A DNA stretch of 64,000 bases from Actinomycetes bacterium (lineage in GTDB: Bacteria; Actinomycetota; Thermoleophilia; UBA2241). Positions 3,496 to 24,021 of this stretch are shown here, one piece after another (positions within the stretch are counted from its first letter, which is position 1; each line of letters begins with the position of its first letter). The stretch is taken from positions 1,627-65,626 of the forward strand of contig JAKPOQ010000076.1 of NCBI GenBank assembly GCA_029547745.1, read 5' to 3'. A program made the position numbers and the translations under genes. Under the pieces are notes generated by a model that saw nothing but the letters and a program-made list of their open reading frames with translations, searched no databases and was not told the DNA's origin.

Positions 3496-3512
3496 AGCCG
3501 GTCCCGGCGGCT

Positions 3513-4289
3513 ATGCTGTCCAAGCGCGTCATCCCTTGTCTGGACGTCCGCGGCGGGCGTGTGGTCAAGGGGGTCAACTTCATCGACTTCCGGGATGCCG
3601 GCGACCCGGTCGAGCTCGCCGCCTTCTACGACTCCGAAGGCGCCGACGAGATCGTCTTTCTGGACATCACCGCCTCGCACGAGGGCCGTGAGATCATCGC
3701 CGACCTCGCGGCGCGGTGCGCCGAGCAGGTCTTCATCCCGTTCACCATCGGTGGAGGACTGCGTCGCGAGGAGGACGTCCGCGCCATCCTCGCCGCCGGC
3801 GCCGACAAGGTGACGATGAACACGGCCGCCGTCGAGGACCCCGAGCTGGTGCGGCGCTGCGCCGACCGCTTCGGCTCGCAGTGCATCGTGGTCGCGATCG
3901 ACGCCAAGCGCGTGACGGAAGCGATGCCCGGCGTCGGGCTCCGTTGGGAGGTATACCTGCACGGCGGTCGGACGCCGACCGGCATCGACGCCGAGGCATG
4001 GGCGGTGCAGGCGGCTGAGCTGGGCGCCGGCGAGTTCATGCTCACGAGCATGGACCGCGACGGGACCTGCGACGGCTACGACCTCGAGCTCACGCGGACG
4101 GTGGCTCGCGCGGTCGACGTGCCGGTCATCGCCTCGGGCGGGGTCGGCACGCTCGAACATCTCGCCGAGGGCCTCACCGCGGGCGAAGCGGACGCGGTGC
4201 TCGCCGCCTCGATCTTCCACTACGGGACGTTCTCGATCGCGCAGGCGAAGGAGTTCCTTGCGGCGCGCGGCATCCCCGTGCGTCGGTGA
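3513..4289 (+). CDS. hisF: imidazole glycerol phosphate synthase, cyclase subunit
   Basis: [23 protein letters not shown]...GGGLR...TSMDRDGT...ASGGVG...ASIFHYG. The ORF-track entry 2883..4289 is the same frame extended upstream. Confidence 0.93.
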
Positions 4290-4335
4290 GCGCGGTGCGT
4301 CGGTGCGGCGGTGAGCGCGGTGCGGCGATGAGCGG
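4278..4335. repeat. imperfect tandem duplication around the hisF stop codon
   Basis: ggtgagcgcggtgcg occurs at 4285-4299 and again at 4310-4324 (period 25 bp). A third degenerate copy (gcgatgagcgg) contains the likely tsaC ATG. Confidence 0.7.
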
Positions 4336-7415: not shown

Positions 7416-7488
7416 TCGTTCCCGCCTGTCGGCGCGCAGGAGTCTCCATCACGGGCGCGTTGTCGCCCGTCGACGCGGCGGCTATAGT

Positions 7489-7710
7489 GTGACTCCACCA
7501 CGGGGAAGAGCCGGGGACGACGATCGGCGGCCCTCTCCGTCGGGCGAATCGGTCGCGTTCCTCATCTTGGGCGGCGTCGTCACCGGTGGCGGCGTGGGAG
7601 CCGGGCTCGACTGGGTCCTCGACAAGTTCCCGCTGTGTACCGTGATCGGCGTGTTCGTAGGGTTCGCGCTGGCGCTGTACGCTTTGTACCTCGAGACGAA
7701 GCCGCGCTAG
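7489..7710 (+). CDS. small two-TM membrane protein resembling the AtpZ-type putative F0F1-ATPase subunit family
   Basis: 73 aa with FLILGGVVTGGGVGAGLDWVLDKFPLCTVIGVFVGFALALYALY. Occupies the position (after wecA) of the small membrane protein that precedes atpB in mycobacteria. Start uncertain. Confidence 0.55.
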   Translation: MTPPRGRAGDDDRRPSPSGESVAFLILGGVVTGGGVGAGLDWVLDKFPLCTVIGVFVGFALALYALYLETKPR

Positions 7711-8180
7711 CCCCGGAGGTAGGCGGGCGATCGGGTAAGCCAGACGCAGGGGGAGAAAGCCGTCGTGCAGAGCGTCGGCAATCCGCGAGACCATGGTCTG
7801 TGGGACGGAGAGTGCGGGTCTACCGACGGGGAACGGTCGCTCCCACAGCATCACGGTCAGTCGTGACTGGATTCGTCAGCAGCAGCACTGCGTGACGGTG
7901 AGTTCAGGTATCTGCATGACGCCGCCAGGACGTGTCAGGCATATTGGTCGTCGTCCATCCATCCTGACGCCGGCAGACGATCCTCACGGCGTATACCGCC
8001 CACTCCAGCCACCTGTGAACGTGAGGGCCCGTCATCAGGACGGTGCGCTGTCCGTGTCTTCTTGGCCCATATGAACGCCGCCCGAGTCCGTGGCATACTG
8101 AGAGCAGCCAGTGTCATTCAGTGGAGGAGGGTCTTGCCTCTGAAGCGTTCACTCGCGGCCAGACGGCGATTGACACGATC

Positions 8181-10352: not shown

Positions 10353-10356
10353 GAGG

Positions 10357-10989
10357 GTGCCGCCTGTCCGTATTCTGATCGTCGACGATCATGCCGTCGT
10401 GCGCGAGGGTCTCTCGTCGATGCTGTCGCAGTACGTCGACTTCGAGGTCGTGGGCGAGGCCGCCTCTGGTGCCGATGCCGTCCGTCTTTCGGACGAGCTC
10501 AAGCCGGACTTGATGCTGCTCGATCTGCAGATGCCTGAGATGGACGGGCTCGAGGTGTTGAAACGCCTCGGGTCCAGCGGCCAAGAGAGCCCCCGCGTGG
10601 TCGTCCTCTCGATGCACGACGACGAGGAACTCGTGGCCAACGCCGTCCGCGCGGGCGCACACGGGTATGTGCTGAAGAGTGCGTCGCGAAACGATCTCGT
10701 CGCTGCCCTGCGCCACGTGGCTGCCGGCGGACAACGGTTCGACGAGGTCGTCGTGCGGGCTCTCCTCTCGGAGCAGCGAAAGGAGGATCACGCTGCCCTG
10801 CTCTCCGAACGGGAGGTCGAGATCCTCCGGCTGATCGCATCCGGTTGCAGTAACAAACAGGTCGCCGAGCGACTGTATATCAGCCTCAGCACAGTCAAGA
10901 CGCACCTCGACGACGTCTACCGCAAGCTGGGTGTCGCCGATCGCGCCCACGCGGTGGCCGTGGCGCTGCGTCTCGGGATCCTTGAATGA
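10357..10989 (+). CDS. NarL/LuxR-family response regulator
   Basis: VRILIVDDHAVVREGL...DLMLLDLQMPEMDG (receiver domain). LSEREVEILRLIASGCSNKQVAERLYISLSTVKTHL (LuxR helix-turn-helix). Confidence 0.92.
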   Translation: MPPVRILIVDDHAVVREGLSSMLSQYVDFEVVGEAASGADAVRLSDELKPDLMLLDLQMPEMDGLEVLKRLGSSGQESPRVVVLSMHDDEELVANAVRAGAHGYVLKSASRNDLVAALRHVAAGGQRFDEVVVRALLSEQRKEDHAALLSEREVEILRLIASGCSNKQVAERLYISLSTVKTHLDDVYRKLGVADRAHAVAVALRLGILE

Positions 10990-12593
10990 GCATCATGGCG
11001 GACGGGCGCGATCCCCTCGTCATCACGCTCAGACAGGAGTCCAGTGTGTCCCGTGAGTGGGGCGTTCTCGACACGCTCCTTTACAACCTGATGACCATGA
11101 ACTTCGCGGTGATGTTCACCGTGCCGTTCCTCGCCGCTGTAGCGCTGTACCCGCGCGGCGACCTGCCCGTGGCGATCCTCATTGCCGGTGTGCTCTGCTG
11201 TGCCGAGGCCGTCGTCTACGCTTTTCTCGCGTCCTCCGTGCCGAGGAGCGGCGGCGATTATTTCCTGCAGAAGCGCCTGGTGTCGCAGGCGATCGGGAAG
11301 GTGTTCGCCTTCACCGGCGTCGTGCTTGGCGGGGCGCTGTGGATGGCTATCGCGGGATGGTTCGCCGCCAATGTGGCCGTGGGCCCCCTCCTGACGGTCG
11401 TCGGGCGCCTCACGGGCCACGACGCCTTCCTCTCCTGCGCGGCCCTCGTTCGGTCGAGTCACGGTGTGTTCCTCCTGTCGCTGACGGTGGTCATATGGTC
11501 GGCGACTGTCAACATATGGGGGCTGCGCACCTATGCCATTCTGCAGCGGATCTCTTGGGCTGTAGGCGCAGGCGCACTCATCTTCCTCGCACTCCTTGTG
11601 GCACTGCTCGGCGCAGACAGGGTCGGGAGCGCCGATCTCTACACGGAGGCGCTGATGCGGGCGCGGGCGTTGGGTTTCGACCCCGGCGCGGGCTCCGGCG
11701 CCGCCATGGGCACCATGGCCCTGGTACCTGTCGCCGCCTTCTCGCTCATCTATCCGGCCTGGAGCGTGCAGCAGGTGGGAGAGGTCCGTCGGGCGAGCAG
11801 GCTACGCTCGCAGCTCGTGACCATGGTCCTGGCTGAAGCGCTCACGGCCGTGTTCTCGGCGGTCGTCGTGGCCCTCGTCCTTGCCAACGTCGATCGCGAC
11901 GGCCTGGCCGCTGGGGCATATCTCTTCCTCTTCGAGCGTTCCGCGATGCCTGATCCGAACGTGCCGTTCTACTGGTTCTTCGACGGCAGTCTCTGGCCGA
12001 GCGGCAGTGCAGTCCTGGCTCTCGCTGTCCTCTTCAACGCGTGGTTCTGGATGTGGGTCCCCGACATCACGCTGGCTGCCTCGCGCGTCATGCTCGCCAT
12101 GTCCTCCGACAGGTCACTGCCGGCTTGGCTCGGTGACCCTTGGGGTCGTCACAGGGCGCCGGCGAAGGCGATCGCCCTCTTCAGCGCCGTCTGCGTCGTG
12201 CCGGCGGCCCTCTATGCTTATACGCCGCTGTGGCGGCTCACGCTGTCGGTAACGCTGCTCAACGTACTGGCGTTTGCCGTGACATGTGCCGGTGGTGCCT
12301 GCGCGCCCTACACCAACAGGGAGTTCTACCGCGAGAGCACGGCCGCCCGTTTCGAGATCCTGAAGGTGCCGCTCATCACGTGGTGCGGCGGTGGGTTCTG
12401 TCTCTTCGCGGCGTTTCTCGTGTGGCGCTTCGCCGTCGACGCTGGTCTGGCGCTGGGTGCACCCCGATGGGCGCTGTTCGCTTTCGTCGCCGTCACTTAC
12501 GTGACCGCCTACCTCGTGCAAGTGCTCGTCACACGATTCGGTGGCTACCGCAAGGGACGGGGCGCCGAGGTCATCTACCGTCTGACTGACTGA
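10986..12593 (+). CDS. APC-superfamily permease (amino acid/polyamine/organocation type)
   Basis: About 12 hydrophobic segments and the SVPRSGGDYFL motif region typical of APC carriers. ATG overlaps the regulator stop (ATGA). Confidence 0.75.
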   Translation: MSIMADGRDPLVITLRQESSVSREWGVLDTLLYNLMTMNFAVMFTVPFLAAVALYPRGDLPVAILIAGVLCCAEAVVYAFLASSVPRSGGDYFLQKRLVSQAIGKVFAFTGVVLGGALWMAIAGWFAANVAVGPLLTVVGRLTGHDAFLSCAALVRSSHGVFLLSLTVVIWSATVNIWGLRTYAILQRISWAVGAGALIFLALLVALLGADRVGSADLYTEALMRARALGFDPGAGSGAAMGTMALVPVAAFSLIYPAWSVQQVGEVRRASRLRSQLVTMVLAEALTAVFSAVVVALVLANVDRDGLAAGAYLFLFERSAMPDPNVPFYWFFDGSLWPSGSAVLALAVLFNAWFWMWVPDITLAASRVMLAMSSDRSLPAWLGDPWGRHRAPAKAIALFSAVCVVPAALYAYTPLWRLTLSVTLLNVLAFAVTCAGGACAPYTNREFYRESTAARFEILKVPLITWCGGGFCLFAAFLVWRFAVDAGLALGAPRWALFAFVAVTYVTAYLVQVLVTRFGGYRKGRGAEVIYRLTD

Positions 12594-12643
12594 TCGCTCG
12601 CTACGGCGCAGCGACAGCAGCGCCAGTCACCAGTTCTCTGCCC

Positions 12644-12680
12644 GGCGAGCCGACCGGTCTACCGGCGGCTCGGCCGTTTG
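12644..12680 (+). terminator. hairpin followed by GTTTG, candidate intrinsic terminator after the permease gene
   Basis: ggcgagccgaccgg-tcta-ccggcggctcggcc followed by gtttg. Confidence 0.45.
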
Positions 12681-12844
12681 CGGTGGCGGTCAGCCATGAG
12701 GCTGGTCGCGTTCCATACCATGGCACCCTTACTGATGGCCTTATGACCGTGTCGCCTCGGGGTGGAGAGGCCTATCGTCATGCGGCATTCAGCGCTCGTG
12801 TGCAAGGGGCTTTCGGCTCCACGTGGCAAGGGGGGTGGAATCTC

Positions 12845-13066
12845 GTGAACGTCGAGTCACGATTCAGCGTGGACATTGCACGGCACCTGGAATCCGACAG
12901 CGACTTCGAGCGTGACCTGTACACCGAGGTCGTTCGCCGTGTCAGCTACGGCCGCCGCGCAGGGTCCGTCGTCAAGACGACCAAGTGGTACGACTGGCTC
13001 GCCCCCGCGATATCCGCCGCGACCATCGTCACTGTGTACTACTTGTACATCTTCCCACGATTCTAG
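12845..13066 (+). CDS. hypothetical small tail-anchored membrane protein (about 73 aa)
   Basis: GTG at 12845 preceded by GGGGGTGG. GC-rich third positions. Single C-terminal TM segment WYDWLAPAISAATIVTVYYLYIFPRF. The ORF-track version starts at 12683, immediately after the putative terminator. No family recognised. Confidence 0.4.
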   Translation: MNVESRFSVDIARHLESDSDFERDLYTEVVRRVSYGRRAGSVVKTTKWYDWLAPAISAATIVTVYYLYIFPRF

Positions 13067-13118
13067 AAGGGGGGTCTCATGGTCAGGGGGGGCTTCATGA
13101 GCGGAACGAGGGTGCCCG

Positions 13119-14705
13119 ATGGGCGACCCTGGTAACAGTTCCGGAGTACAGCAGGAGGCGGCGTTCGGCTTCATGCCGACGTTGAAGAAGGACCGTATCT
13201 TCGGATGGCTCGATTTCACGCTCGTCCAGGCAGGGTTTGGTATCGCTGCCTGGTGTTTCCTGGTCGGCGGTCTCACCGGCGTCACGGTGCAGGGAAAGTA
13301 CGCGATTTGGGTGATCCTGCTCGGGAACGCCGTCCCCGTGCTCATGTGTCTGCCCTTCGCTTTGCAGACGGCTCGTCTCGGTGTCGACACCTTCATCGCC
13401 AGCAACATGGCGCTGGGCTATCGCTTCTCACAGGTCTTCTTCGTCATCTTCGTGACCTTGAACCTGGGATGGATAGCGATCGCCAACTTCATGCTCGGGC
13501 AGGCTGCTGCCAAGCTCGCTGGTGTCGCCGGCATGCCGGAATTCCTGACGACAAGAACTCTGGGCGCGCCGATCTGGTCGATCCTCTTCATGTTCGTCGC
13601 CTTGTACATCACTTATCTGGGGCCGGGGGTGATCAAGAACATCGCCCGTGTCGGCGTGCCATGCATCATCGCGATCCTGGCGCTTCTCATCGGCATCGTA
13701 GTCTTCAAGTACGGGTTCGACACCGTGTGGGAATCCAGGCCGTCGGCTCCTTACACGACAGGCGATGGATCCATCGACTTCGGGCGCTCCGTGGTGACGG
13801 CGTTGGAATGGAACGTCGGGCTCGGGTTCTCATGGTTGGTGTACCTGGGGCAATGGTGTCGACTGGCGCGCAGTGAAGGGGCGGCGATCAATGGCTCTTA
13901 CCTTGGTCTGGGGCTGCTTCTCAACATCGCGGCGATCTTCGGCGCCTTCATCGCCCTCATTCTGGGAGACCTGAACCCGCCGAACTGGATGCTCCCGGCC
14001 GGCGGTCGCGTGGTGGGTGTCCTGGGGCTCGGACTCCTGGTGCTCGCCAACCTGTATGCGAGCTCGTATCTCATGTACGCACAGGCGCTCAGCATGAAGA
14101 CGCTGTCTCCGCGCATGAACTGGCGCACTTGCGTGCTGACATGTGTGCCCGCCGTCTTCCTCGTCGTGACCCCCGGGTTCTACGACAGCTATCAGCGTTT
14201 CCTCGTCATGATCGCCTATGTCATCGCGGTGTTCGGCGGGATCCTGGTCTCCGACTGGCTCTTCGTCCATCGCAGGAGGGGAGAGCTGGGGGCTCTCTAC
14301 GATCGCGAGAATCCGCAGTACCGGTACCTACGCGGATGGAACCCTGCCGCCATCGTGACGTTCGTCGCCGCGACGGCGTTCTACTGGTTCATGTACAACC
14401 CCGTCTCCGACACGCCGGGTCCACTCATGGTCCGGCTCGGCCTCGGGGCGGGCATCCCTTCGTTCCTGTTCGCGGCCGTTCTGTACACGACGCTGGCGAA
14501 GACCGCGTTCCGCCGCCTGTACGCGGCGGACCAGGAATGGCAGGCGCTGCGCGACCGCGGCCAGATCGCCGTCATGGTCCCCGACCAGATCGCCGTCGAC
14601 CTGTCCGGGGTATGCGCCGAGGACTGGCAGGACAGCGAGGATGACGGGTGTCCGGAAGGGCTGTGCACGCTCGAGGCTCTCGATGATCAGATGCCGGCCG
14701 GGTGA
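13119..14705 (+). CDS. NCS1-family (nucleobase/hydantoin/allantoin/vitamin:cation symporter-1 type) permease
   Basis: N-terminus KKDRIFGWLDFTLVQAGFGIAAWCFLVGGLTG and 12 hydrophobic segments, as in CodB/Mhp1-like carriers. Unusual about 65-aa acidic, Cys-containing C-terminal tail. Confidence 0.75.
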   Translation: MGDPGNSSGVQQEAAFGFMPTLKKDRIFGWLDFTLVQAGFGIAAWCFLVGGLTGVTVQGKYAIWVILLGNAVPVLMCLPFALQTARLGVDTFIASNMALGYRFSQVFFVIFVTLNLGWIAIANFMLGQAAAKLAGVAGMPEFLTTRTLGAPIWSILFMFVALYITYLGPGVIKNIARVGVPCIIAILALLIGIVVFKYGFDTVWESRPSAPYTTGDGSIDFGRSVVTALEWNVGLGFSWLVYLGQWCRLARSEGAAINGSYLGLGLLLNIAAIFGAFIALILGDLNPPNWMLPAGGRVVGVLGLGLLVLANLYASSYLMYAQALSMKTLSPRMNWRTCVLTCVPAVFLVVTPGFYDSYQRFLVMIAYVIAVFGGILVSDWLFVHRRRGELGALYDRENPQYRYLRGWNPAAIVTFVAATAFYWFMYNPVSDTPGPLMVRLGLGAGIPSFLFAAVLYTTLAKTAFRRLYAADQEWQALRDRGQIAVMVPDQIAVDLSGVCAEDWQDSEDDGCPEGLCTLEALDDQMPAG

Positions 14706-14762
14706 CAGCAGGTCGACAGACGATGCCGTGTGTCATCAGAAGCGAAAGGAGTCGATGAGTCC

Positions 14763-16289
14763 ATGACAGCTGCAACATCAACCTACGGCGCGGTCACCGA
14801 CGAGGTCGTCGCCGAGCTCAAGAGGCTGCTGGGCGACGAGAACGTCCTGACCGACATGCATGAGCGGGCGATGCGTGCCTTCAGCTGTGCCCCGGCGCCG
14901 CTCCATCGTTGGAAGGACCAAACGCCCGATGTCGTCGTGCTGCCGGGCAGCACCGAGGACGTCGTGGGCGTCCTCAAGCTCGCCAACGAGAGGCGTATCC
15001 CGGTGACGCCCCGCGCAGGCGCCTCCGGCCTTGCCGATGGCGCCATGCCGCTGCGCAAGGGCATCTGTGTCGACATCAAGCGCATGAACGAGATCTTCGA
15101 GATCGACGAAGACAACATGTGCGCCACCGTCGGCACCGGGATCAACATGCTCAAGCTGAACGAAGTGCTCGAGCCGCTCGGCAAGATATACCCGGACGAC
15201 CTTGCCGGGTACGCGAACGCCATGCTCGGCGGGCGGATCGGCTGCGGAGGCTGGACGCTCATCGGCGGAAAGTTCGGGCACATCCCCGACACGGTGATAA
15301 GCATGGAGTGCGTGCTCCCCGACGGCCAGGTGATCTGGGTCGGCGGCGGCGGCACCAAGAAGATCCGCAAGAGTTCCTCGGGCTACCGACTCAAGGACCT
15401 CTTCATGCAGCACCAAGGCACACTGTGCATCGCCACCAAGGCGGTCATCGAACTCTACCCCAAGTCTGAGGTGGAGTTCGCCGGCTACTTCGCGTTCGAC
15501 AACTGGGACGATGCCTACGCCGCTCTCTACGACGTCACTACGAGAGGGTTCGGCAACCTGTCGTCGGCGATGATCTTCGACGACAAGAAGATCGACTTCC
15601 TGCGCCGTGATGACGAGGCCTTCATCCCGTTGCCCAAGGAGGTGAAGTTCGTCGACCTCTTCACGATGTACGGTCTCAAGTGCGAGGTCGAGCCGGCCGT
15701 GAGGGAAGGCTTCCGAATCATGAAGAAGCACGGCGGCCGTTACCTCGGTCCCGAGCAGGGAGAAGGCGACTGGGCGTCACGGCACGACCGATACCATCTC
15801 TCGTACCACGGACGCACACCCGACGGCCAGGCGACGCTCATGTCGTGGCACTGCGAGGACACGGCCGCCTATCACACGGCGCTGCCCATCCTCCGCGAGC
15901 AGTACCACGAGATCGTCGGCCGCTACATGACAGAGTACCCGGGCGTGTTCGACGACTGGGGGATCTTCATCTATACGAGCAACCCGTTCAAGGGTTGGGG
16001 CGACTACCTGATCGAGATTGACGTCGGTATCGCCGAGTTGCAGTACAACGATGAGACTTGGGACGCCTGGATCCGCATGAAGCGCGAGATCGCTGAGGCA
16101 GCGGTGGCCCAGGAGTGCTCGGTCTCGATCTGCCACGGGTCGTGCCGCGAGGGCGACGACGACGTCGCCATGCACAAGGAGATGAAGAACGGCACGTTCG
16201 ACATCATGAAGAAGATCAAGAGGATGATCGACCCGAACAACATCATGAACCCCGGTAAGTACTGCCTTGACGAAGCCTACGACGACTGA
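14763..16289 (+). CDS. FAD-linked oxidase/dehydrogenase, GlcD / D-2-hydroxyacid dehydrogenase-like
   Basis: FAD_binding_4-type VVLPGSTEDVVGVLKLANERRIPVTPRAGASGLADGAMP. C-terminal MKKIKRMIDPNNIMNPGK typical of FAD-oxidase_C. GAAAGGAG Shine-Dalgarno upstream of the ATG at 14763. Confidence 0.85.
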   Translation: MTAATSTYGAVTDEVVAELKRLLGDENVLTDMHERAMRAFSCAPAPLHRWKDQTPDVVVLPGSTEDVVGVLKLANERRIPVTPRAGASGLADGAMPLRKGICVDIKRMNEIFEIDEDNMCATVGTGINMLKLNEVLEPLGKIYPDDLAGYANAMLGGRIGCGGWTLIGGKFGHIPDTVISMECVLPDGQVIWVGGGGTKKIRKSSSGYRLKDLFMQHQGTLCIATKAVIELYPKSEVEFAGYFAFDNWDDAYAALYDVTTRGFGNLSSAMIFDDKKIDFLRRDDEAFIPLPKEVKFVDLFTMYGLKCEVEPAVREGFRIMKKHGGRYLGPEQGEGDWASRHDRYHLSYHGRTPDGQATLMSWHCEDTAAYHTALPILREQYHEIVGRYMTEYPGVFDDWGIFIYTSNPFKGWGDYLIEIDVGIAELQYNDETWDAWIRMKREIAEAAVAQECSVSICHGSCREGDDDVAMHKEMKNGTFDIMKKIKRMIDPNNIMNPGKYCLDEAYDD

Positions 16290-16329
16290 ACAGCGTTCGG
16301 CTCGGAAGTAGAAAGGAAGGTCCTGACCT

Positions 16330-17571
16330 ATGCCATATCAACTCAGCAAGAAGGACTTCTACGCTGAGCCCCTGTCGAAGGCCAAGCCCATCGACGAGGA
16401 GTTCGTCAAAGAGGCGTACCTGGTCTTTGCTTGCCGGCACAAGTTCTGTCGCGACATCTGCCCGAACTTCGACATCACCCGTAACGAGGCTCATTCCTCA
16501 TACGGCTTCCACACATCGATCCTCGCAGTCAGCCGCGGCGTCGGCCAACTTGACGAGCTCATCGACAACTTCACCTACTGCCTTGAGTGTGGCGCCTGTG
16601 AACTGCGTTGCCCGAACACCTGCATGGGCGGCGACTTTTATCGGCGTTCAACGACGACCGTCGACCTTGTACGCAAGATCCGTCGCGACCACATGGCTGA
16701 CGGCGGTGAGATCAAGAACTGGAGTGCCGTCAAGGAGTATCTTGACGAGCACCGCGGCTTCGTCGCTACACAGGGTGATCTGGTCACTAAGTGGGCTGAG
16801 GGCATCAAAGTGGCCGGAGACCTGAAGACGGCGCTCTTCGTCGACTTCTTCACGGCCACCCAGGGCACCGAGGTGCCTCGCCTGGCCGCTCAGGTACTTA
16901 ACAAGCTCGGCGTCAAGTACGGCATCTACACGACGCCCGGGGTCACCGCCCCGGAGCTTCTCAGCGAGAACGACGACGAGTGGAAGAAGTACGCCGGCGA
17001 GAACGTCGCGAACTTCAAGAAGCTCGGCGTCCAGACGCTGGTCGTCATGAACCCCCACGATTACGCGCTGCTCATCCGTGAGTACCCGAAGTGGTTCGAC
17101 ATGGACGGCATCGAGACGGTCTTCATCACCGACTTCATCCTCAAGAAGATGAAGGAGAAGGGCGTGACGCCGCCCAAGGCCATCGAGGGCAAGTTCGCCT
17201 ACCACGACCCGTGCACGTTGAACACGCTGGTCGTCGAGGCAGAATCGCCGCGCGACTTGGTGGGCATGGTGCCTGGCGCCGAGATCGTCGACGTGCCGCC
17301 GGGCAACCAGTGGCGCTACTGCTGTGGCAACGGCAACGGCCCGTATCGAAAGCTCCACGAGGACATCGCCTACCGCATCGGCCAGAAGCGCCTGCGTGCG
17401 GCCGCCGACTTGGGCGTCGACACGATCCTTGTCGCCTGCCCGCACTGCAAGGACCAGTTCACCGATGTCAAGCAGAAGGCTGGTCTGCCGGTGGAGCCGG
17501 TGCACGTGATCGAGCTGGTCGCAAAGGCCATGGGTATCGAGTGGGAGACCACCTCGCCGACCATTGGTTGA
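16330..17571 (+). CDS. Fe-S oxidoreductase, GlcF/GlpC/HdrD-like (2x[4Fe-4S] motif plus CCG domains)
   Basis: CRHKFCRDICP and CLECGACELRCP ferredoxin motifs. Second CCG domain intact (HDPCTL...YCCGNGNG...ACPHCKDQF). First CCG-domain position has lost all Cys (FVDFFTA...TTPGVTAPE...MNPHDY). Confidence 0.8.
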   Translation: MPYQLSKKDFYAEPLSKAKPIDEEFVKEAYLVFACRHKFCRDICPNFDITRNEAHSSYGFHTSILAVSRGVGQLDELIDNFTYCLECGACELRCPNTCMGGDFYRRSTTTVDLVRKIRRDHMADGGEIKNWSAVKEYLDEHRGFVATQGDLVTKWAEGIKVAGDLKTALFVDFFTATQGTEVPRLAAQVLNKLGVKYGIYTTPGVTAPELLSENDDEWKKYAGENVANFKKLGVQTLVVMNPHDYALLIREYPKWFDMDGIETVFITDFILKKMKEKGVTPPKAIEGKFAYHDPCTLNTLVVEAESPRDLVGMVPGAEIVDVPPGNQWRYCCGNGNGPYRKLHEDIAYRIGQKRLRAAADLGVDTILVACPHCKDQFTDVKQKAGLPVEPVHVIELVAKAMGIEWETTSPTIG

Positions 17572-17599
17572 CCTCAGGGGGTCAGAGAGGAGCGTCAGC

Positions 17600-17803
17600 A
17601 TGGCTGAAGAGATCATCTACAAGTACGGGCACATCGAGATCCTGCCCACACGGATGCAGGAGTACATCAAGCAGCAGGAGATGAACGAGGCCGAGCGCGA
17701 GCGCATCGTGAAGGCCCGGAACATCCATCTCGACTGGTACCACCGGCACTTCGCGTACGAGGTCCTCAAGCCACCTGCCGAAGAATGGGAGCCCAAGGCG
17801 TGA
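17600..17803 (+). CDS. hypothetical 67-aa soluble protein (no family recognised)
   Basis: ATG at 17600 preceded by GAGAGGAG. Sequence MAEEIIYKYGHIEILPTRMQEYIKQQEMNEAERERIVKARNIHLDWYHRHFAYEVLKPPAEEWEPKA. Followed directly by a perfect hairpin. Confidence 0.5.
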   Translation: MAEEIIYKYGHIEILPTRMQEYIKQQEMNEAERERIVKARNIHLDWYHRHFAYEVLKPPAEEWEPKA

Positions 17804-17824
17804 GGTAGGCCGGATCCGGCACCC

Positions 17825-17858
17825 GGTTGGCGGGGCCGCGAAAGCGGCCCCGCCAACC
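17825..17858 (+). terminator. perfect 15-bp stem / GAAA tetraloop hairpin between the 67-aa ORF and etfB
   Basis: ggttggcggggccgc-gaaa-gcggccccgccaacc. Preceded by the palindrome gccggatccggc (17809-17820). No U-tract. Confidence 0.5.
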
Positions 17859-17914
17859 CACTGCTCGTGGTCAGCCGTTCGATCGATCCACTTACTGCAC
17901 TTACTGGGAGCACC

Positions 17915-18697
17915 ATGAGAATCATCGTCTGCGCCAAGCACGTGGTGGACTCCACGGAGATCCGTTGGGACGACGAGCACGATGAAGTCGTCTTGCGCAA
18001 CTTGCCCACCAAGATCAGTGACTACGACCGTAATGCGCTCGAGGCGGCGGTGGTTCTGAAAGAGTCCGAGCCGTCCGTCGATCTTGACGTCGTCATGATC
18101 GGCGGTGAGGCCGCCCTGAAGACGCTCAAAGAGGCCGTTGCCATGGGCGCTGACAGGGGTCATCTCGTCGAGGGCGGGTGGGACGATCCGTTCGATCCTC
18201 TGCGCAGCGCACGGGTGCTCGCCAAGGCCATCGACCAGCTCGAGGAGCCTGACCTCGTCATGTGCGGCCTCGTGTCGGAGGACGGTTACAACGGGGTGAC
18301 CGGAGCGGCGCTGGCGCAACTCCTTGACGTCCCGTACCTGGCCCCCGTCGTCGGCCTGAAGGTCGACGAGGGATCCCTGGAAGCAGTGCTCGACGTCGGT
18401 TCGGCGTTGCGTACGGTCAAGGTCGCGATGCCCTGTGTAGTCGCGGTGGACTCGGCGATGAACGTGCCGCGTCTCCCGACGGTGTTACAGGTCATGAAAG
18501 TGAAAGGCGACCGCGTCGCGAAGATGAGCCTCGACAGCTTGTCGCTGTCAGCTGACGCGGCCGAACTGGCCCATGCTGGCGAGCTGGTCGGGAGTGAATC
18601 GGGCGCTGTCGAGCGCAGACGAGTCCTTATCGAGGAGGCGCCCGACGAAGCGGCCGCCAGACTCGTCGAGTACCTGCGGCAGGAAGGGGTGCTGTGA
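17915..18697 (+). CDS. etfB: electron transfer flavoprotein, beta subunit
   Basis: MRIIVCAKHVVDSTEIRWD...DYDRNALEAAVVLKE...VMCG. Confidence 0.88.
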   Translation: MRIIVCAKHVVDSTEIRWDDEHDEVVLRNLPTKISDYDRNALEAAVVLKESEPSVDLDVVMIGGEAALKTLKEAVAMGADRGHLVEGGWDDPFDPLRSARVLAKAIDQLEEPDLVMCGLVSEDGYNGVTGAALAQLLDVPYLAPVVGLKVDEGSLEAVLDVGSALRTVKVAMPCVVAVDSAMNVPRLPTVLQVMKVKGDRVAKMSLDSLSLSADAAELAHAGELVGSESGAVERRRVLIEEAPDEAAARLVEYLRQEGVL

Positions 18698-19671
18698 TGG
18701 CCGGCCGTTTCGTCGTGAGTTCCGCGTCCGTCACTGACCTCCAGAGGATGGCGGAACTGGCACGGCGCCTGGCGGGCGCGGACGGGCGGGTCGACGCCGT
18801 CGCGCTCGCCGGTGACGCCGGCGTGCTCGCTCCGGAGGACGGCACCCTGGCCGATACCGCTGGGGGTCTGGCCGGACTGGCCGACACCCTGCTCGTCTAC
18901 GAAGGCGCCGGTGAGTATCTGCGCGGCGACATGTGGGCGGCGGCGCTGGTCGACGCCGTCGGCCGGGACGGTGAGTGCGTCCTCGTCGCCGATGCCCCGG
19001 CGGCGCGCGAGGCCGTGGCGCGGACCGCGGTGTCGTGTCGTGCGTCCGTGGCGAGCATGTGCGAGGACCTGCAGCGGGCCGAGGGCGGCGGATTCGTGGC
19101 CAGGCGCTCGATCTACGGCGGGGTGGCGGACGGTCTCATCGCCCTCGTTTCGACGCCAGCCGTGTGTCTGTTCGCCGCCGGCAAGTTCGAGGGCGCGCCG
19201 TCGGGCGAGTCTGTGCCCGTGGAACAGCGTACCCTGGGGGCGCCCGCCTACGAGGTGACGCACGTCGGCGACGAGCCGGTGGTAAGAACGGTGGACCTTG
19301 CCGGAGCGTCCGTCGTGGTGTCGGTCGGCCGCGGTTTCGTCAAACGGGAGGACCTCGACCTCGTCGATCCTCTGGTCAGTGCCCTGGGCGCGGAACTCGG
19401 CTGCTCGCGACCGATCGCTGAGGATTTCAAGTGGCTGCCCAAGGAGCGGCTTGTCGGGCTCACCGGAGAGTCCGTCACGGCCGAGCTCTACTTGGCCCTG
19501 GGGATCTCCGGCCAGGTGCAGCACCTGACAGGAGTCAAGGGAGCGCGTGTGGTCGCTGCCGTGAACAACGACGCCAAGGCTCCCATCACGCGCAACGCCG
19601 ACTATGTGGTCGTCGGTGACTTGTACAAGGTTGTGCCCGAGCTCGTGAACGCGCTCCGCAGCCGATCGTGA
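18694..19671 (+). CDS. etfA: electron transfer flavoprotein, alpha subunit
   Basis: VVSVGRG...LGCSRPIAEDFKWLPKERLVGLTGESVTAELYLALGISGQVQHLTGVKGARVVAAVNNDAKAPI. Start overlaps the etfB stop. Confidence 0.88.
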   Translation: MMAGRFVVSSASVTDLQRMAELARRLAGADGRVDAVALAGDAGVLAPEDGTLADTAGGLAGLADTLLVYEGAGEYLRGDMWAAALVDAVGRDGECVLVADAPAAREAVARTAVSCRASVASMCEDLQRAEGGGFVARRSIYGGVADGLIALVSTPAVCLFAAGKFEGAPSGESVPVEQRTLGAPAYEVTHVGDEPVVRTVDLAGASVVVSVGRGFVKREDLDLVDPLVSALGAELGCSRPIAEDFKWLPKERLVGLTGESVTAELYLALGISGQVQHLTGVKGARVVAAVNNDAKAPITRNADYVVVGDLYKVVPELVNALRSRS

Positions 19672-21776
19672 CGGGGTGGACGGTGGACATCGAGTACACG
19701 AGGGAATACCTGCCGTTCCTGCCACACACGGCCACGCTCGTCGTGATGTACGCCTGTGTGGTCGTCGTTGCCGTCCTGTTCGTGTGGGGGTTCTGGCGGA
19801 GGTACCGCGCCTACACGAAGGGCGGCCGAAGCCTCTGGCAAGCGGTGAACGGCAAGGTACTGCCGTGGCGGCCACGACTCTGGCGGGTCGTCCGCGACGT
19901 CATCCTGCAGACCAAGGTGCGCGAACGCCATCTGCCTGCTGTGATGCACATGGCGATCTTCTACGGGATGGTCCTGCTCTTCATCGGGACTTGCGTGGTC
20001 CTGTTCTATGAGGACGTGCTCGTCTGGTTCGGCGACTTCGAGTTCGGCGGCCTGCCCTACGTCGTCTTCGAGTCCGTGCTCGACGTCGCAGCTCTTGCGC
20101 TCATCATCGGAGTGGTGATCGCGCTATGGCGGCGGCTCGTGATGCGTCCTGCCTATCTGTCGCCGAAGCGGTCGACCATGCTGGTCCTCTGGGGGCTGCT
20201 GTTCATGGGCGTATCCGGGCTGGGACTCGAGGCTTACCGTATCGCGGCGCAGCCGAGCGAATGGGCCCAGGCCGCGTTCGTGGGCTGGACGCTGTCACAC
20301 CTGCTCGAGGGCTGGGCGGGCCAGGAAGGGACACCGGTGGCCGTATACCAGACCCTGTGGTGGCTGCACGCCGGCGGCGCCTTCGCGCTCATCGTCGGCG
20401 CCGCTTGGACAGGATTCGCGCACATCTTCGTCTTGCCTGCCAATGTCGCCGCGCACGATCCCGAACGCGCGAAGACCAAGCTGAGGACACCCTTCAACCT
20501 GATCGCCGCGATGGAGTCGGAGGAGGACGTGGAGCTCGTTGCCGGCACCGCCACTACCGGCGACATCGCCCCGCCCGACAGACTTGCGGCCGATGCCTGC
20601 GTAGCCTGCGGCCGGTGTCATGACGAGTGCCCGGCCGTCGCCAGCGGCCGGCAGCTATCGCCTCGGGACCTCGTGCAGGAGATACAGGCGACACTCGGCA
20701 CCAATCTGGGGAGCGCGCCGAGCGACCGACCGGCTGCCGAGTTCGAGGATGCGGCGTGGTCGTGCACGAACTGCTATGCATGTGAGCAGGTCTGCCCGGC
20801 GCGCATCCGCCACGTCGACCTTGTCCTCGACTTCCGGCGCGCACTCGTCGACCAGAACCGTCTCGATGAGCAGAAGCTCGGCGTGCTCCAGGCTCTCGAC
20901 CGGAACATGAACCCGTACAAACTGCCGTCGCACGAGCGGGCGGCGTGGATCACCGAACTGCCCTACGCGGATGAGGTCATCTACGGGGCGGCAGAGCTGA
21001 TTGAGCCGCCGGAGTACCTGTATTGGATCGGCTGTGCGGCGGCGTACGACGAGCGTACCGCTCAAGTCGCACGGGCGACCATGGACCTGCTGCGCGCAGC
21101 CGGCGTCCATTTCATCACGCTGGGACCGGCCGAGCCGTGCTGCGGAGAGCCGGCGAAGCGGCTCGGTGAAGAGGGCCGGTTCCAGATGATCGCCATGCAG
21201 GCCATCGAGATGATCAAGGAGACAGGGGCCGCAAAGATCGTCACCCACTGCCCGCACGGTCTCAACGTCTTCCTCCACGAGTACCCGGCGCTGGGCTTCT
21301 CGATCCCGGCGGTGCATCACGCCGAGCTCCTCGCTGACCTCGTCTCGGCAGGTCGGCTCAAGCTCGGTGTTGGCATCGGGGGCAAGGTCGTCTATCACGA
21401 GCCCTGCAACCTGGCTCGCGCCGGCCATCCGGCGACCGCCGCCCTGGCGCTCTTGGACGGGTCGACCGTGCTTCCCGAGAAGGCCGGTGTACACACCTTC
21501 TGTTGCGGCGGCGGTGGCGGCAACAGTTTCTATCAGGTCGAGCAGGAAGAGCGACGCATCAGCGCTCTCCGCTACGAGCAGGTCGTCGCTACCGGGGCGG
21601 ACAGGCTTGCTGTAAGTTGCCCCTTCTGCTTGACGATGCTGCGCGACGCGGCGGCGGGACACGGGGACGGAGCCCTTCAGGTGATGGACGTGGCGGAGGT
21701 GTTGCATGCCCGGCTCGACGAAGCTCCCACGACTACCGCATCAGCGGCGGTGATCGGAGCGCGGGTGAACGAGTAG
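19668..21776 (+). CDS. membrane Fe-S oxidoreductase: N-terminal NarI/DsrM-like multi-TM (putative b-haem) domain fused to an HdrD/DsrK-like 2x[4Fe-4S] plus two CCG domains. Putative ETF:quinone oxidoreductase.
   Basis: Five to six N-terminal TM helices with His pairs (HLPAVMHMAIFYG; WWLHAGGAFALIVGAAWTGFAHIF). CVACGRCHDECP and CTNCYACEQVCP. CCG domains WIGCAAAYD...EPCCGEP...THCPHG and HEPCNLA...FCCGGGGG...SCPFCLTML. GTGA overlap with etfA. Confidence 0.8.
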   Translation: MTGWTVDIEYTREYLPFLPHTATLVVMYACVVVVAVLFVWGFWRRYRAYTKGGRSLWQAVNGKVLPWRPRLWRVVRDVILQTKVRERHLPAVMHMAIFYGMVLLFIGTCVVLFYEDVLVWFGDFEFGGLPYVVFESVLDVAALALIIGVVIALWRRLVMRPAYLSPKRSTMLVLWGLLFMGVSGLGLEAYRIAAQPSEWAQAAFVGWTLSHLLEGWAGQEGTPVAVYQTLWWLHAGGAFALIVGAAWTGFAHIFVLPANVAAHDPERAKTKLRTPFNLIAAMESEEDVELVAGTATTGDIAPPDRLAADACVACGRCHDECPAVASGRQLSPRDLVQEIQATLGTNLGSAPSDRPAAEFEDAAWSCTNCYACEQVCPARIRHVDLVLDFRRALVDQNRLDEQKLGVLQALDRNMNPYKLPSHERAAWITELPYADEVIYGAAELIEPPEYLYWIGCAAAYDERTAQVARATMDLLRAAGVHFITLGPAEPCCGEPAKRLGEEGRFQMIAMQAIEMIKETGAAKIVTHCPHGLNVFLHEYPALGFSIPAVHHAELLADLVSAGRLKLGVGIGGKVVYHEPCNLARAGHPATAALALLDGSTVLPEKAGVHTFCCGGGGGNSFYQVEQEERRISALRYEQVVATGADRLAVSCPFCLTMLRDAAAGHGDGALQVMDVAEVLHARLDEAPTTTASAAVIGARVNE

Positions 21777-21874
21777 GAGCAAAGGTCTGGCGTGTCGACC
21801 CCCACCGGGATCCGGCATGGGGGAAGGGTAGTGGTGCGGCCGGGCACCGCGTCGCCGCACAAGGGAGGATACAC

Positions 21875-22315
21875 ATGGGTCTCAAGATGGTCGTGGGCCT
21901 TGACAGTTCGAAGTACGCGGAGCAAGCGTTCCAGCGGGCGCTCGAGTTGGCCCGAAAGACGGGCGGCTCGCTGGTCGTCGTGTGTGGTCGCCGGCCCAAG
22001 TCGATATCGTACGTGGCCGCTTTCCAGCCTGCGTTGACGATTGCCAGCGCCATGAAGGACGCCGAGGAAAGGGCTGCAGAGGCGCTCAAGAAGGCCGCTG
22101 ACGAGGCTGCCGCGGCTGGGGTGGACGTCAAGACCGAGGCGGTGTACGAGGATCCTGCCGAGTCCTTGATCAATGTGGCCGAGCGCGAGATGGCCGATGC
22201 CATAGTCGTGGGCGCCAAGGGAGAAGGCGGACTGTCGGACCGTCTCTTCGGGTCGACGGTCACCGACCTGTTGCAGCGCAGTACGATCCCGGTCCTCGTG
22301 GTTCCCGCGAGGTAG
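21875..22315 (+). CDS. universal stress protein (UspA family)
   Basis: MGLKMVVGLDSSKYAEQAFQRALELA...IVVGAKGEGGLSDRLFGSTVTDLLQRSTIPVLVVP. AAGGGAGGA Shine-Dalgarno upstream of the ATG at 21875. Confidence 0.85.
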   Translation: MGLKMVVGLDSSKYAEQAFQRALELARKTGGSLVVVCGRRPKSISYVAAFQPALTIASAMKDAEERAAEALKKAADEAAAAGVDVKTEAVYEDPAESLINVAEREMADAIVVGAKGEGGLSDRLFGSTVTDLLQRSTIPVLVVPAR

Positions 22316-22475
22316 TCGGGCCACGGTCGGGCATGAGTGGGTGGACGCGAAAGGCGCGAAGGGTGATACGGGCACCGAGGCGACGCGGCGTGAGCGTCGG
22401 TAGGCGACGTGCAGCCTCGGCCAGTGCCTGTGTCACCGCCGGCGACGGAAGAGCTGGTCTGTGGTCTTGGCGACG

Positions 22476-22505
22476 TTGCGGGCAGGGGACTGAAACAGGT
22501 AGAGT
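22476..22505 (+). promoter_or_regulatory. candidate sigma-70/SigA-type promoter for the atp operon
   Basis: TTGCGG-N18-TAGAGT, about 235 nt upstream of atpI. By eye only. Confidence 0.25.
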
Positions 22506-22741
22506 GTGACGGTTCCGGGCACAGGTGGCGGCTGAGGCGAGCGGGATCAGAGATCCCGTTCGCTCGCAAGGCCAGGTCAAGACTCGTGACGGCGTCAAGG
22601 GTCGCAGCGCTGGCGGCAGAAGCGTGTGCGTCGCTCAGTGAGTCTTGGCCTCATGTCGCGCCGTGTTCTCGGGGGACCCCATGTGACCAGGAGTGGGTCA
22701 CGTCTGCGATGAGGGAGTGAGATCAGGGTCGGAATGCGTCG

Positions 22742-23167
22742 GTGGATGAGTCGGTGAGGGTATTGGAGCGGGAGGAGAAACGAAGAAGGCCAGTCTGGAT
22801 GGCCCCGGTGGTCCTCGGGACGGCGACTGGAGCGGCCGCCGCCGCAGCGGCGACGCTTGGCCGTCCGGTCTGGGCAGCGGCCCTTGGCGCCGCGCTCGCC
22901 CTCGCCTACTGGGGGCTCGAGGCGCTGTCCTGGCGACGCGGCGCCGAAGCCGAGATCAAGGCGGCGATCGCCGTCGCCATCGGCGGCATGGTGTTGCGCT
23001 TCGCCCTCGTGCTCGGCGTACTGCTCCTCGTGGGCCTGTTCGCCCGAGGCGCTCTGGCCACGGCCGCGATCAGCTTCCTGGCCGCGTTCACCCTTTACGT
23101 CGGGCTTCGCCTGTTCATGTATCCGATGACTCCTCCCCGACGGCCGGGGCAGGCGAGGTCACGGTGA
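22742..23167 (+). CDS. atpI: ATP synthase protein I (AtpI)
   Basis: 141-aa protein with four hydrophobic segments, immediately upstream of and overlapping atpB. Composition typical of AtpI. Start uncertain. Confidence 0.65.
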   Translation: MDESVRVLEREEKRRRPVWMAPVVLGTATGAAAAAAATLGRPVWAAALGAALALAYWGLEALSWRRGAEAEIKAAIAVAIGGMVLRFALVLGVLLLVGLFARGALATAAISFLAAFTLYVGLRLFMYPMTPPRRPGQARSR

Positions 23168-24021
23168 AGCGTCGACTGCTCGTCGGGCTCTACCTCGTCG
23201 CGGGTCTCGTCGCGCTGGCGATCCTCGCATTCCTCCCCGGGGGTGCCAGGGCGCAGTTCGACGTCCTCGCCGAGTTCGAGCTGCATCCCATCATCAAGTT
23301 GCCCTCGATCGGCCCTGTCGACCTGTCCATCAACAAGGCCGTCATCTACCTGTGGATCACGACCGCCGTGCTCGCCGTGTGCGCCTTCATCATCTCGCGG
23401 AACATCAAGCCGGTGCCCTCGCGCTTCCAGTTCGTCATGGAGACGCTCTACGAGCTTGCGCGGCGCAGCATCGTCGGCGCGGTCATGAAGAGCGACCAGG
23501 CCTCATGGTTTCCGTATATCGCGGGGGCCTTCTTCTTCGTCCTCGTCTCCAACCTCATCGGTCTCGTCCCGCTGCCGTTCGCCGAGAACCACCAGTTCGG
23601 GTTCTATGCTGCCACGGCCAACCTTTACGCGACCCTCGCCCTGGCGCTCTGCACGTTCGTGTTCACGCACTACGCCGGGATCCGCAAACACGGCCTGGTT
23701 GGATATGTGAACGGCTGGGTGCCGTCGAGCGCGCCGCCCGTGCTCCGCCAGTTGATGCTCCTCATCCACGCCATCAGCGAGGTCTTCCGTCTCGTCTCAC
23801 TCTCGGTCCGGCTCTTCGCCAACATGCTCGCCGGACACTCGATCCTCGCCGTCTTCTTCGCCATGGCGCTCATCTTCCAGAACTACCTGGCGGCGGTGGT
23901 GCTGCAGGCGGGATCGATCATCATCTATCTCTTCGAGATCTTCATCGCCTGCATCCAGGCGTTCATCTTCGCCATCCTCTCCGCCGTGTACATCGGCGGG
24001 GCGCTGGATCAGGAGGAATGA
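23164..24021 (+). CDS. atpB: F0F1 ATP synthase subunit a
   Basis: LSVRLFANMLAGH with the essential Arg. Multi-TM. Confidence 0.93.
   Translation: MKRRLLVGLYLVAGLVALAILAFLPGGARAQFDVLAEFELHPIIKLPSIGPVDLSINKAVIYLWITTAVLAVCAFIISRNIKPVPSRFQFVMETLYELARRSIVGAVMKSDQASWFPYIAGAFFFVLVSNLIGLVPLPFAENHQFGFYAATANLYATLALALCTFVFTHYAGIRKHGLVGYVNGWVPSSAPPVLRQLMLLIHAISEVFRLVSLSVRLFANMLAGHSILAVFFAMALIFQNYLAAVVLQAGSIIIYLFEIFIACIQAFIFAILSAVYIGGALDQEE

Follow-up and report, generated by a model that had tools for sequence, protein, structure and literature searches.

The DNA analysed here, referred to as the window, is a 64,000-nucleotide stretch from an Actinomycetes bacterium of the Thermoleophilia (contig JAKPOQ010000076.1 of assembly GCA_029547745.1). 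At positions 14763-21776 of its forward strand lies a cassette of six same-strand open reading frames (ORFs), located precisely where an earlier note on this DNA had placed six co-directional genes. They encode, in this order, a GlcD-like dehydrogenase binding flavin adenine dinucleotide (FAD), a GlcF/HdrD-like Fe-S protein, a small protein of 67 amino acids (aa), the subunits EtfB and EtfA of an electron-transferring flavoprotein (ETF) and a 702-aa membrane protein. All six carry a coding signature in their codon-position GC content, with a GC3 of 0.78-0.87 and a low GC2. The first four genes are separated by 40, 28 and 111 bp, the widest of these gaps lying between the small gene and etfB. 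The last three overlap as described before, since the etfB stop and the etfA start share GTGATG at 18694-18699 and the etfA stop and the start of the membrane protein gene share GTGA at 19668-19671. Tight spacing (28-111 bp) together with two start/stop overlaps makes the arrangement operon-like. HMM searches had been called for to check the proposed GlcD/GlcF, ETF, CCG and NarI-like domains, and the results from Pfam and NCBIfam agree with these assignments. As none of the cassette proteins reaches a curated NCBIfam cutoff, they fall outside the named equivalog families.

Our preferred reading, to which we give a probability of roughly 0.6, is that the six products form one respiratory dehydrogenase module. 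Electrons would pass from a substrate through the trio of GlcD-like, GlcF-like and 67-aa proteins to a non-bifurcating EtfBA, on to the membrane protein as an ETF:menaquinone oxidoreductase (EMO, also EtfD) and finally to menaquinone. A substrate-to-quinone ETF chain without a named substrate had been proposed before, and the domain content, the recurrence of the cassette across phyla and the EMO/EtfD homology speak for it. Neither an acyl-CoA dehydrogenase, whose absence had also been remarked upon, nor any other ETF client was found among the ORFs scanned in the window.

The membrane protein and its electron transfer flavoprotein

The 702-aa protein (19668-21776, forward strand) contains Fer4_8/9/10 matches and two CCG stretches (3.8e-26). 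It aligns with EtfD of M. smegmatis (PDB 9ojn_A) at an E value of 1.4e-62, with 197.5 bits for residues 360-690 and 19.3 bits for the transmembrane (TM) part at residues 34-340. The TM domain, in which hydropathy indicates five helices, also matches QmoC of the NarI type (NCBIfam NF038018, 2.7e-11). In M. smegmatis EtfD, haem b is held by His78 and His241, eight Cys residues bind the cubane clusters, and the D2 site is built from Cys637, Cys672, Cys673, Cys709 and Cys712 together with His583 (PMC13083937). When these ligand positions were carried over through the 9ojn alignment, all eight cubane Cys were found, namely C311, C314, C317 and C321 in the first motif and C366, C369, C372 and C376 in the second. 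The proximal non-cubane site is represented by C580, C612, C613, C651 and C654 plus H530, which comes from the first CCG domain. That first domain had been described as intact alongside the NarI-like domain, the two ferredoxin motifs and the second CCG domain. This description holds for all parts except the first CCG domain itself, the distal one, in which C456, C491, C492 and C528 are followed by CPHG instead of CPxC, so that one Cys of the usual five is missing. The distal site thus reads C..CC..C-P-H-G in the window protein and C..CT..C-P-H-C in M. smegmatis EtfD, where it holds a linear 3Fe-4S cluster, and work on the S. aciditrophicus EMO reported that the distal cluster varies across the family (bioRxiv 10.64898/2026.08.18.745454).

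A His pair spaced 18 residues apart in one helix had been noticed and likened to the haem ligands of NarI. The pair is real (H234 and H252), but its members do not both serve as ligands in the manner of NarI. H94, H234 and H252 correspond to His78, His223 and His241 of M. smegmatis EtfD and, by family conservation, to His87, His233 and His251 of S. aciditrophicus EMO, three residues conserved in every EMO membrane domain (bioRxiv 10.64898/2026.08.18.745454). They are kept in 14-15 of 16 cluster-linked homologues, in which the cluster ligands are conserved as well. H252 would therefore pair with H94 to hold the proximal haem, and H234 would be the lone axial ligand of a distal haem site, which is occupied by a twin haem in the S. 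aciditrophicus EMO and empty in M. smegmatis EtfD. Judged by homology, the 702-aa protein is a member of the EMO/EtfD family, and ETF-dependent menaquinone reduction is predicted from this homology and from the link to etfBA. Both ETF-to-menaquinone transfer and ETF docking are established for EMO/EtfD (PMC13083937; bioRxiv 10.64898/2026.08.18.745454), and EMO takes its electrons from an ETF bound via EtfB (PMC8593149; bioRxiv 10.64898/2026.08.18.745454).

EtfB (17915-18697, forward strand, 260 aa; Pfam ETF, 1.5e-28) and EtfA (18694-19671, forward strand, 325 aa; Pfam ETF_alpha, 2.8e-28), the latter with a divergent N-terminal domain, are encoded directly upstream of the EMO gene. Whether such an ETF bifurcates can be judged from the motif DGDTAQVGP, by which EtfB of bifurcating ETFs recognizes the bifurcating FAD (b-FAD) (PMC9232219). 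EtfB of the window has DGYNGVTGA at this site, and the motif is absent from all 19 cluster-linked EtfB proteins, in which only D-G.....G is left. Furthermore, Pfam and PDB comparisons revealed no ferredoxin domain in EtfA. Because the b-FAD motif and the ferredoxin domain are both missing, a non-bifurcating ETF is expected, and confurcation of the type known from the Lct lactate dehydrogenase/EtfAB complex appears unlikely. The direction, which the earlier note had considered unreadable from the sequence, is narrowed by these results.

The bifurcating alternative deserves consideration nevertheless. It would have the cassette work by Lct-like confurcation or bifurcation with NAD+ and ferredoxin, or in the manner of EtfABCX, from NADH to quinone plus ferredoxin, with EMO replacing EtfCX. 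Lct itself is built from a GlcD-type lactate dehydrogenase and EtfAB. In the PDB, EtfB comes closest, by small margins, to three bifurcating proteins (CarD, LctB and C. difficile EtfB), and in NCBIfam EtfA and EtfB are nearest to FixAB/YdiQR. In contrast, EtfA is matched best by the alpha subunit of the non-bifurcating Paracoccus ETF (4.5e-29, residues 32-319), with human ETF likewise among the best. The PDB ranking of the two subunits does not separate bifurcating from non-bifurcating relatives. The missing motif and the missing ferredoxin domain argue against this alternative. Moreover, the ETF of S. aciditrophicus, which docks on EMO via EtfB, carries AMP and not a second FAD (bioRxiv 10.64898/2026.08.18.745454). 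Taken together, we regard a bifurcating cassette as very improbable.

The putative three-subunit dehydrogenase and its relatives

The GlcD-like protein (14763-16289, forward strand, 508 aa) is recognized by Pfam FAD_binding_4 (7.7e-31) and FAD-oxidase_C (1.8e-10). Its NCBIfam scores are 163.9 for TIGR00387 (glcD; cutoff 567.9) and 100.3 for NF008408 (cutoff 897). An AlphaFold2 model (pLDDT 83.7, pTM 0.86) has the FAD-binding, substrate and C-terminal domains of the D-2-hydroxyacid dehydrogenase fold; its top Foldseek match is mouse LDHD (E 6.5e-33, TM-score 0.76/0.84, about 21% identity), followed by RPA1076, AGPS and LctD. In mouse LDHD, Arg347 binds the substrate carboxylate, His443 is the catalytic base, and His398, His405 and Glu442 are Mn ligands (PMC10589216). 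Placing these residues by profile alignment assigned R340 to Arg347 and H458 to His443, both of which are invariant in 55 family members. C457, nearly invariant in the family, stands in place of Glu442 (CHG versus EHG). The stretch with His398 and His405 could not be aligned, and the family shows an invariant WHCED at 362-366. A carboxylate-bearing substrate is thus plausible from the conserved Arg, whereas classical D-2-hydroxyacid chemistry is not assured, because the metal ligand Glu442 is replaced by C457 and the His398/His405 motif is unrecognisable. The family is large. Over 1,090 protein clusters were matched at E<=1e-10, with identities mostly of 50-57%, and upward of 1,000 clusters are at least 50% identical to the GlcD-like protein. 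Its members appear in databases as "glycolate oxidase" or "D-lactate dehydrogenase", names that are probably wrong, as the subunit set differs and the active site is remodelled.

In Pfam, the GlcF-like protein (16330-17571, forward strand, 413 aa) matches Fer4_17/Fer4_8 and, at residues 290-377, one CCG stretch only (1.5e-16); it scores 38.7 against NF008434 (GlcF) with its cutoff of 333. Two ferredoxin-type motifs are present, the first of them non-canonical (Cx4Cx3CP). NCBIfam alignments with TfrB and GlpC cover both CCG domains, and among solved structures the CCG part of EtfD comes closest (9ojn, E 5.9e-15). As had been observed before, the first CCG domain (CCG-1) is devoid of Cys, with F173, V205 and T206 at the Cys positions and NPHD for CPxC, and the second (CCG-2) is complete with C295, C331, C332, C370 and C373. 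His243, retained in the Cys-less CCG-1, is the counterpart of His583 in M. smegmatis EtfD, a ligand of the proximal cluster there.

The third gene (17600-17803, forward strand) encodes the 67-aa protein, which belongs to no Pfam or NCBIfam family. The label "orphan" given to it earlier is no longer appropriate, for about 70 of 82 loci, drawn from many phyla, have the small protein next to GlcD/GlcF. Its alignment has a strongly conserved core, RIV..R..HLdWMH.HfA. An hmmsearch of 1.84 billion representatives returned 46 small-protein families at E<=1e-3, mostly standalone proteins of 55-125 aa. No fusion of GlcD or GlcF size was evident among these 46 families, the longer matches of 209, 215 and 1282 aa being uninspected, and none of 17 close relatives has the small protein fused to GlcD or GlcF. 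From this conservation, the 67-aa protein is probably the third subunit of the dehydrogenase.

Relatives of the cassette were collected by fetching 80 genome loci (L001 onward) of at least 592 with the GlcD-like profile and by tblastn with the window proteins. The GlcD-like, GlcF-like and small proteins occur together in nearly every fetched locus. The survey of the six-gene order that the earlier note had suggested found the full cassette in the same order (trio, EtfB, EtfA, EMO) in 16-18 of the 80 loci, plus a Desulforhopalus locus (L084) fetched separately. Carriers of this order belong to Thermoleophilia (L001-L011), Calidifontibacillus, a Bacilli metagenome-assembled genome (MAG), Veillonellaceae, Cellulomonadaceae, Desulforhopalus (Desulfobacterota) and Archaeoglobi, and a locus from Crenarchaeota (Thermoproteota) contains the same cassette genes in a different order. 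The Desulforhopalus singaporensis locus shows a peculiarity in that about 1.5 kb (8972-10504) devoid of any ORF longer than 79 aa separates etfA from the EMO gene.

Two subfamilies emerged. Type A, which includes the window, has the order GlcD-GlcF-small protein followed by EtfB-EtfA-EMO; a type-A locus from Nitrososphaerales (L053) showed no EMO gene in the stretch examined. Type B, the majority of loci, has the order GlcF-GlcD-small protein and no adjacent ETF. Neighbour joining of the GlcD proteins placed 21 ETF-linked sequences and two from truncated contigs in one clade (23 of 83). The Cys patterns of 75 GlcF homologues follow the same division. All 19 type-A proteins combine a Cys-less CCG-1 with five Cys in CCG-2; 17 of them are adjacent to ETF genes and the other two lie on contigs that end before ETF, so that the Cys-less CCG-1 tracks ETF adjacency in 17/17 complete loci. 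The 56 type-B proteins, in turn, have C173, C205 and C206 in CCG-1 and Ser at positions 332 and 373 of CCG-2; 55 of them come without adjacent ETF, and in the remaining case ETF genes are about 5 kb away. The His corresponding to His243 is invariant in both types. Type-A GlcF thus seems to have lost the distal CCG cluster and to have retained the proximal cluster with its His ligand. Since the two types can be told apart by the Cys pattern of GlcF, the Cys-less CCG-1 is, as far as these alignments tell, a hallmark of the ETF-coupled lineage. It had been suggested that the flavoenzyme has two potential electron outlets, its GlcF-like partner and ETF. The confinement of the Cys-less CCG-1 to the ETF-linked clade resolves this question in part.

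Some peculiarities of the relatives are worth mentioning. In Bacillota, separate genes encode the ferredoxin part (about 165 aa) and the CCG part (about 250 aa) of the GlcF-like protein (L081, 11521-12776; L015, 9445-10701). A gene for a Mer-like LLM-class oxidoreductase of the F420 type is present in 52 of the 80 loci and usually follows the type-B trio (for instance L083, 11766-12818; TIGR03555, about 196-213 bits, below cutoff). Three archaeal loci of the ETF type (L014, L028 and L053) contain it as well.

The gap between the small gene and etfB contains a stem-loop (17825-17858, forward strand) with a perfect GC-rich 15-bp stem, a GAAA loop and no U-tract. An 86-nt window around it folds with -53.2 kcal/mol (z = -4.67), and none of 200 shuffled sequences was as stable. 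Strong hairpins are found at the equivalent junction of L004, L006, L008, L010, L013, L015, L017 and L056, which represent several phyla. Such a junction hairpin may set the stoichiometry of dehydrogenase and ETF transcripts.

These observations bear on the possibility that the cassette consists of two independent units, a self-sufficient trio of GlcDF type that delivers electrons to quinone or another acceptor, and a general EtfBA-EMO serving acyl-CoA dehydrogenases or others encoded elsewhere. The type-B trios, which do without adjacent ETF in about 55 of the 80 loci, would fit such a division, as would the stable hairpin between the two halves and the literature, in which EMO/EtfD is tied to beta-oxidation. 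However, no fewer than four bacterial phyla as well as archaeal lineages have trio, ETF and EMO side by side, for the most part with an unchanged order, the ETF-linked GlcD proteins form a single clade, and the GlcF Cys pattern follows ETF adjacency without exception in the complete loci. There is also no acyl-CoA dehydrogenase nearby, and the hairpin, since it recurs at the same junction in many cassettes, suits an element within an operon. We consider two independent units unlikely.

Neighbouring genes and substrate clues

The closest relatives of the window are Thermoleophilia MAGs, with GlcD-like proteins up to 91% identical (UBA6103). The window is GC-rich (0.60-0.75) and dips at about 7500-22700 (0.60-0.67 versus about 0.72 elsewhere) between a WecA-like GT4 gene and an ATP synthase operon. 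From left to right, this low-GC stretch encodes a histidine kinase with a GAF domain, a response regulator of the LuxR type, permeases of the APC and then the NCS1 family, the six cassette proteins and a universal stress protein. In L001, L009 and L010 the cassette is flanked by the same GT4 and atp landmarks with other regulators and permeases. In the rest of the window, the scanned ORFs encode housekeeping proteins, among them MurA, LytR, SecA, PrfB and TrpE.

The histidine kinase (8043-10352, forward strand; Pfam GAF, HisKA_3, HATPase_c) and the response regulator (10357-10989, forward strand; Pfam Response_reg, GerE) are candidate regulators of the island. A kinase/regulator pair is present also in L001; L009 has instead a divergent gene whose C-terminal LuxR-type helix-turn-helix was judged by eye from the translation. 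The APC-superfamily permease follows at 10986-12593 (forward strand; Pfam AA_permease_2, 5.8e-12), and the NCS1-family permease lies directly upstream of the cassette at 13119-14705 (forward strand; Pfam Transp_cyt_pur, 3.8e-13; NCBIfam ncs1/CytX matches below cutoff). The 525-bp gap between the two permease genes (12594-13118) holds one ORF of 127 aa (12683-13066), which has no family match and failed the GC3-based coding filter. For these reasons it was not counted as part of the system, and the gap may represent either a small gene or a regulatory region. An Rfam search of 7000-23200 at a permissive threshold revealed no riboswitch, its sole match being a chance miRNA, and promoter and terminator scans gave no excess over the shuffled expectation.

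Homologous NCS1 genes (30-48% identity) stand beside the trio in L012-L016, L019, L020, L028, L047 and L084, that is, in both subfamilies. APC permeases flank the cassette in the window, L001, L053 and L056. The NCS1 permease probably imports the substrate or a precursor of it, and the APC permease is a possible alternative importer. Several loci add enzymes that might act on such a compound. BADH-like aldehyde dehydrogenases are encoded in three Bacillota loci (600-657 bits; cutoff 668.6), AOR was found in the Archaeoglobi and Desulforhopalus loci, and class-III aminotransferases occur in type-A loci, the one from Archaeoglobi being of the GABA type (518 bits; cutoff 506.65). Other neighbours of type-A cassettes are PEMT/ICMT-like membrane proteins and sigma-54 activators. 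In three Bacillota cassettes, a PEMT/ICMT/NnrU-like protein of about 200-230 aa is encoded next to the NCS1 gene (L012, 6164-6856; L015, 7243-7872; L081, 20213-20818).

Two loci have a special gene content. In the type-B locus of Thermomicrobium sp. CFH 73360 (L047, 118-19027), the NCS1-trio group is located among genes for an amidohydrolase, two XDH/aldehyde-oxidase Mo subunits and hydantoinase A, together with an S-Me-THD-like protein and an NAD-dependent D-2-hydroxyacid dehydrogenase, a context that suggests catabolism of N-heterocycles. In L012, a Bacillota MAG, three Fe-S proteins are encoded upstream of the NCS1-trio group (182-4320), one of which scores 183 bits against the 160-bit threshold of the reductive dehalogenase subfamily TIGR02486.

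None of these accessory enzyme genes of the relatives is present in the window. Collectively, the neighbours point to the catabolism of a small nitrogen-containing compound via an aldehyde or acid, a picture that is suggestive and inconsistent from locus to locus. They do not discriminate between conversion of ethanolamine to glycolate, conversion of aminopropanol to D-lactate, degradation of polyamines via 4-aminobutanal, and routes involving choline/betaine aldehyde or ureidoglycolate.

Thermoleophilia are an aerobic class. This matters for the question whether the chain could run in reverse, from menaquinol through EMO and ETF, with or without the aid of the proton-motive force, to a trio acting as a reductase of 2-oxoacids or other compounds, comparable to the enoyl-CoA respiration of syntrophs. 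EMO in syntrophs runs with or against the gradient, and strict anaerobes are among the carriers of the cassette (Desulforhopalus, Archaeoglobi and Veillonellaceae). In the window, however, the organism comes from the aerobic class named above, and the cassette lies beside an ATP synthase operon. Substrate oxidation fits better with the neighbouring genes, as these encode uptake permeases here and catabolic enzymes (aldehyde dehydrogenase, AOR, aminotransferase) at other loci. A reverse chain is therefore improbable in our view.

Proposed electron path and known systems

Returning to the preferred reading of a single module, we infer complex formation, the electron path, its direction and the class of substrate as follows. 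A soluble enzyme composed of the GlcD-like, GlcF-like and 67-aa proteins would oxidise a small carboxylate-bearing substrate and pass the electrons to its dedicated non-bifurcating EtfBA. The reduced EtfBA would dock on the 702-aa EMO/EtfD protein, whose two non-cubane (CCG) clusters, two cubane clusters and haem b would in turn relay the electrons to menaquinone. For the exit from the dehydrogenase, we favour a route from the FAD of GlcD along an Fe-S wire in the GlcF-like subunit, which would end at its remaining CCG cluster and hand over to the ETF flavin. On EMO, ETF approaches a pair of clusters to which this remaining one would be homologous. ETF might then shuttle electrons between two Hdr-like non-cubane modules, from the CCG cluster of the GlcF-like protein to those of EMO, a tentative idea that we hold to be possible rather than probable. 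Alternatively, ETF could be reduced by direct flavin-to-flavin contact, as in LctD-EtfAB.

Several points weigh against a single module as proposed here. Replacement of the metal-ligand Glu by Cys and the unalignable His398/His405 region mean that 2-hydroxyacid chemistry is not assured. The type-B majority without adjacent ETF indicates that dehydrogenases of this kind do not intrinsically need ETF. The ETF class was assigned from one published motif, and a transcript might end at the strong hairpin that lies between the small gene and etfB. Finally, we know of no precedent for an Fe-S subunit in an ETF-dependent dehydrogenase.

If ETF does shuttle between two Hdr-like modules, the cassette would represent a new type of ETF client, whose direct donor is an Fe-S protein and not a flavoprotein. 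It would also define a widespread three-subunit dehydrogenase with a Cys/His-remodelled active site for a metabolite other than a classical D-2-hydroxyacid, and the role of EMO/EtfD in bacteria and archaea would extend past fatty-acid oxidation to that of a general point of entry into respiration. EMO/EtfD has recently been solved and is pursued as a tuberculosis drug target, and has been described only as the electron exit of beta-oxidation. The cassette indicates that, in archaeal lineages and in no fewer than four bacterial phyla, EMO works with an ETF of its own for another kind of dehydrogenase. Moreover, the split into ETF-linked and ETF-free forms with complementary losses of CCG Cys offers a natural experiment on the non-cubane clusters of proteins of the GlcF, GlpC and LutA type. 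Cultured carriers include Calidifontibacillus erzurumensis, Desulforhopalus singaporensis and Asanoa, Solirubrobacter and Thermomicrobium species.

In the literature, including the papers on EMO/EtfD, we found no published characterisation of the trio or of the full cassette. The benzene 'Magic' cluster was considered and rejected as a member of the same family, since it encodes a GlcDEF-like complex with two flavoproteins. Thus, a dedicated non-bifurcating ETF and EMO for a dehydrogenase of GlcD, GlcF and small protein, the small subunit itself and the clade-specific rewiring of the CCG domains are apparently undescribed. The parts already known are EMO/EtfD, with two structures, and the combination of a GlcD-type dehydrogenase with ETF in Lct.

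Lct (LctBCD/Ldh-EtfAB) of A. woodii (7QH2) shares with the cassette a GlcD-family FAD dehydrogenase encoded together with EtfB and EtfA, and LctD ranks with the top matches of the GlcD-like protein in both sequence and structure. In contrast to Lct, the window proteins have neither the b-FAD motif nor the ferredoxin domain of EtfA, carry Cys instead of the metal-ligand Glu, and are joined by two further subunits (the Fe-S protein and the small protein) and by a quinone reductase in the membrane. E. coli GlcDEF likewise combines a GlcD-type flavoprotein with an Fe-S/CCG protein of the GlcF type. Here, the 67-aa protein takes the place of GlcE, and no second FAD_binding_4 gene resembling GlcE was found in the cluster or among the other scanned ORFs of the window. 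In addition, the glcD and GlcF scores are far below their cutoffs, CCG-1 is Cys-less, and ETF and EMO are attached.

With LDHD and D2HGDH of mitochondria and bacteria, the GlcD-like protein has in common the fold, the carboxylate-binding Arg, the catalytic His and ETF as a likely acceptor; D2HGDH is known to use ETF. It differs by a low identity of about 21%, by the Glu442 to Cys replacement and the unrecognisable His398/His405 motif, and by its two extra subunits. Another counterpart is the type-B trio, made of the same three proteins with 50-55% identical GlcD and a conserved small protein. There, GlcF precedes GlcD, neither ETF nor EMO is adjacent, and the Cys losses in the CCG domains are complementary to those of type A. 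Known EMO/EtfD proteins, finally, share with the 702-aa protein the single chain, the NarI-like domain with five TM helices, the two cubane motifs, the two CCG domains and an association with etfBA. M. smegmatis EtfD has a disordered tail of about 265 residues that the window protein does not have, and, whereas the known proteins are linked to acyl-CoA dehydrogenases, that of the window is linked to a dehydrogenase of the GlcD/GlcF type.

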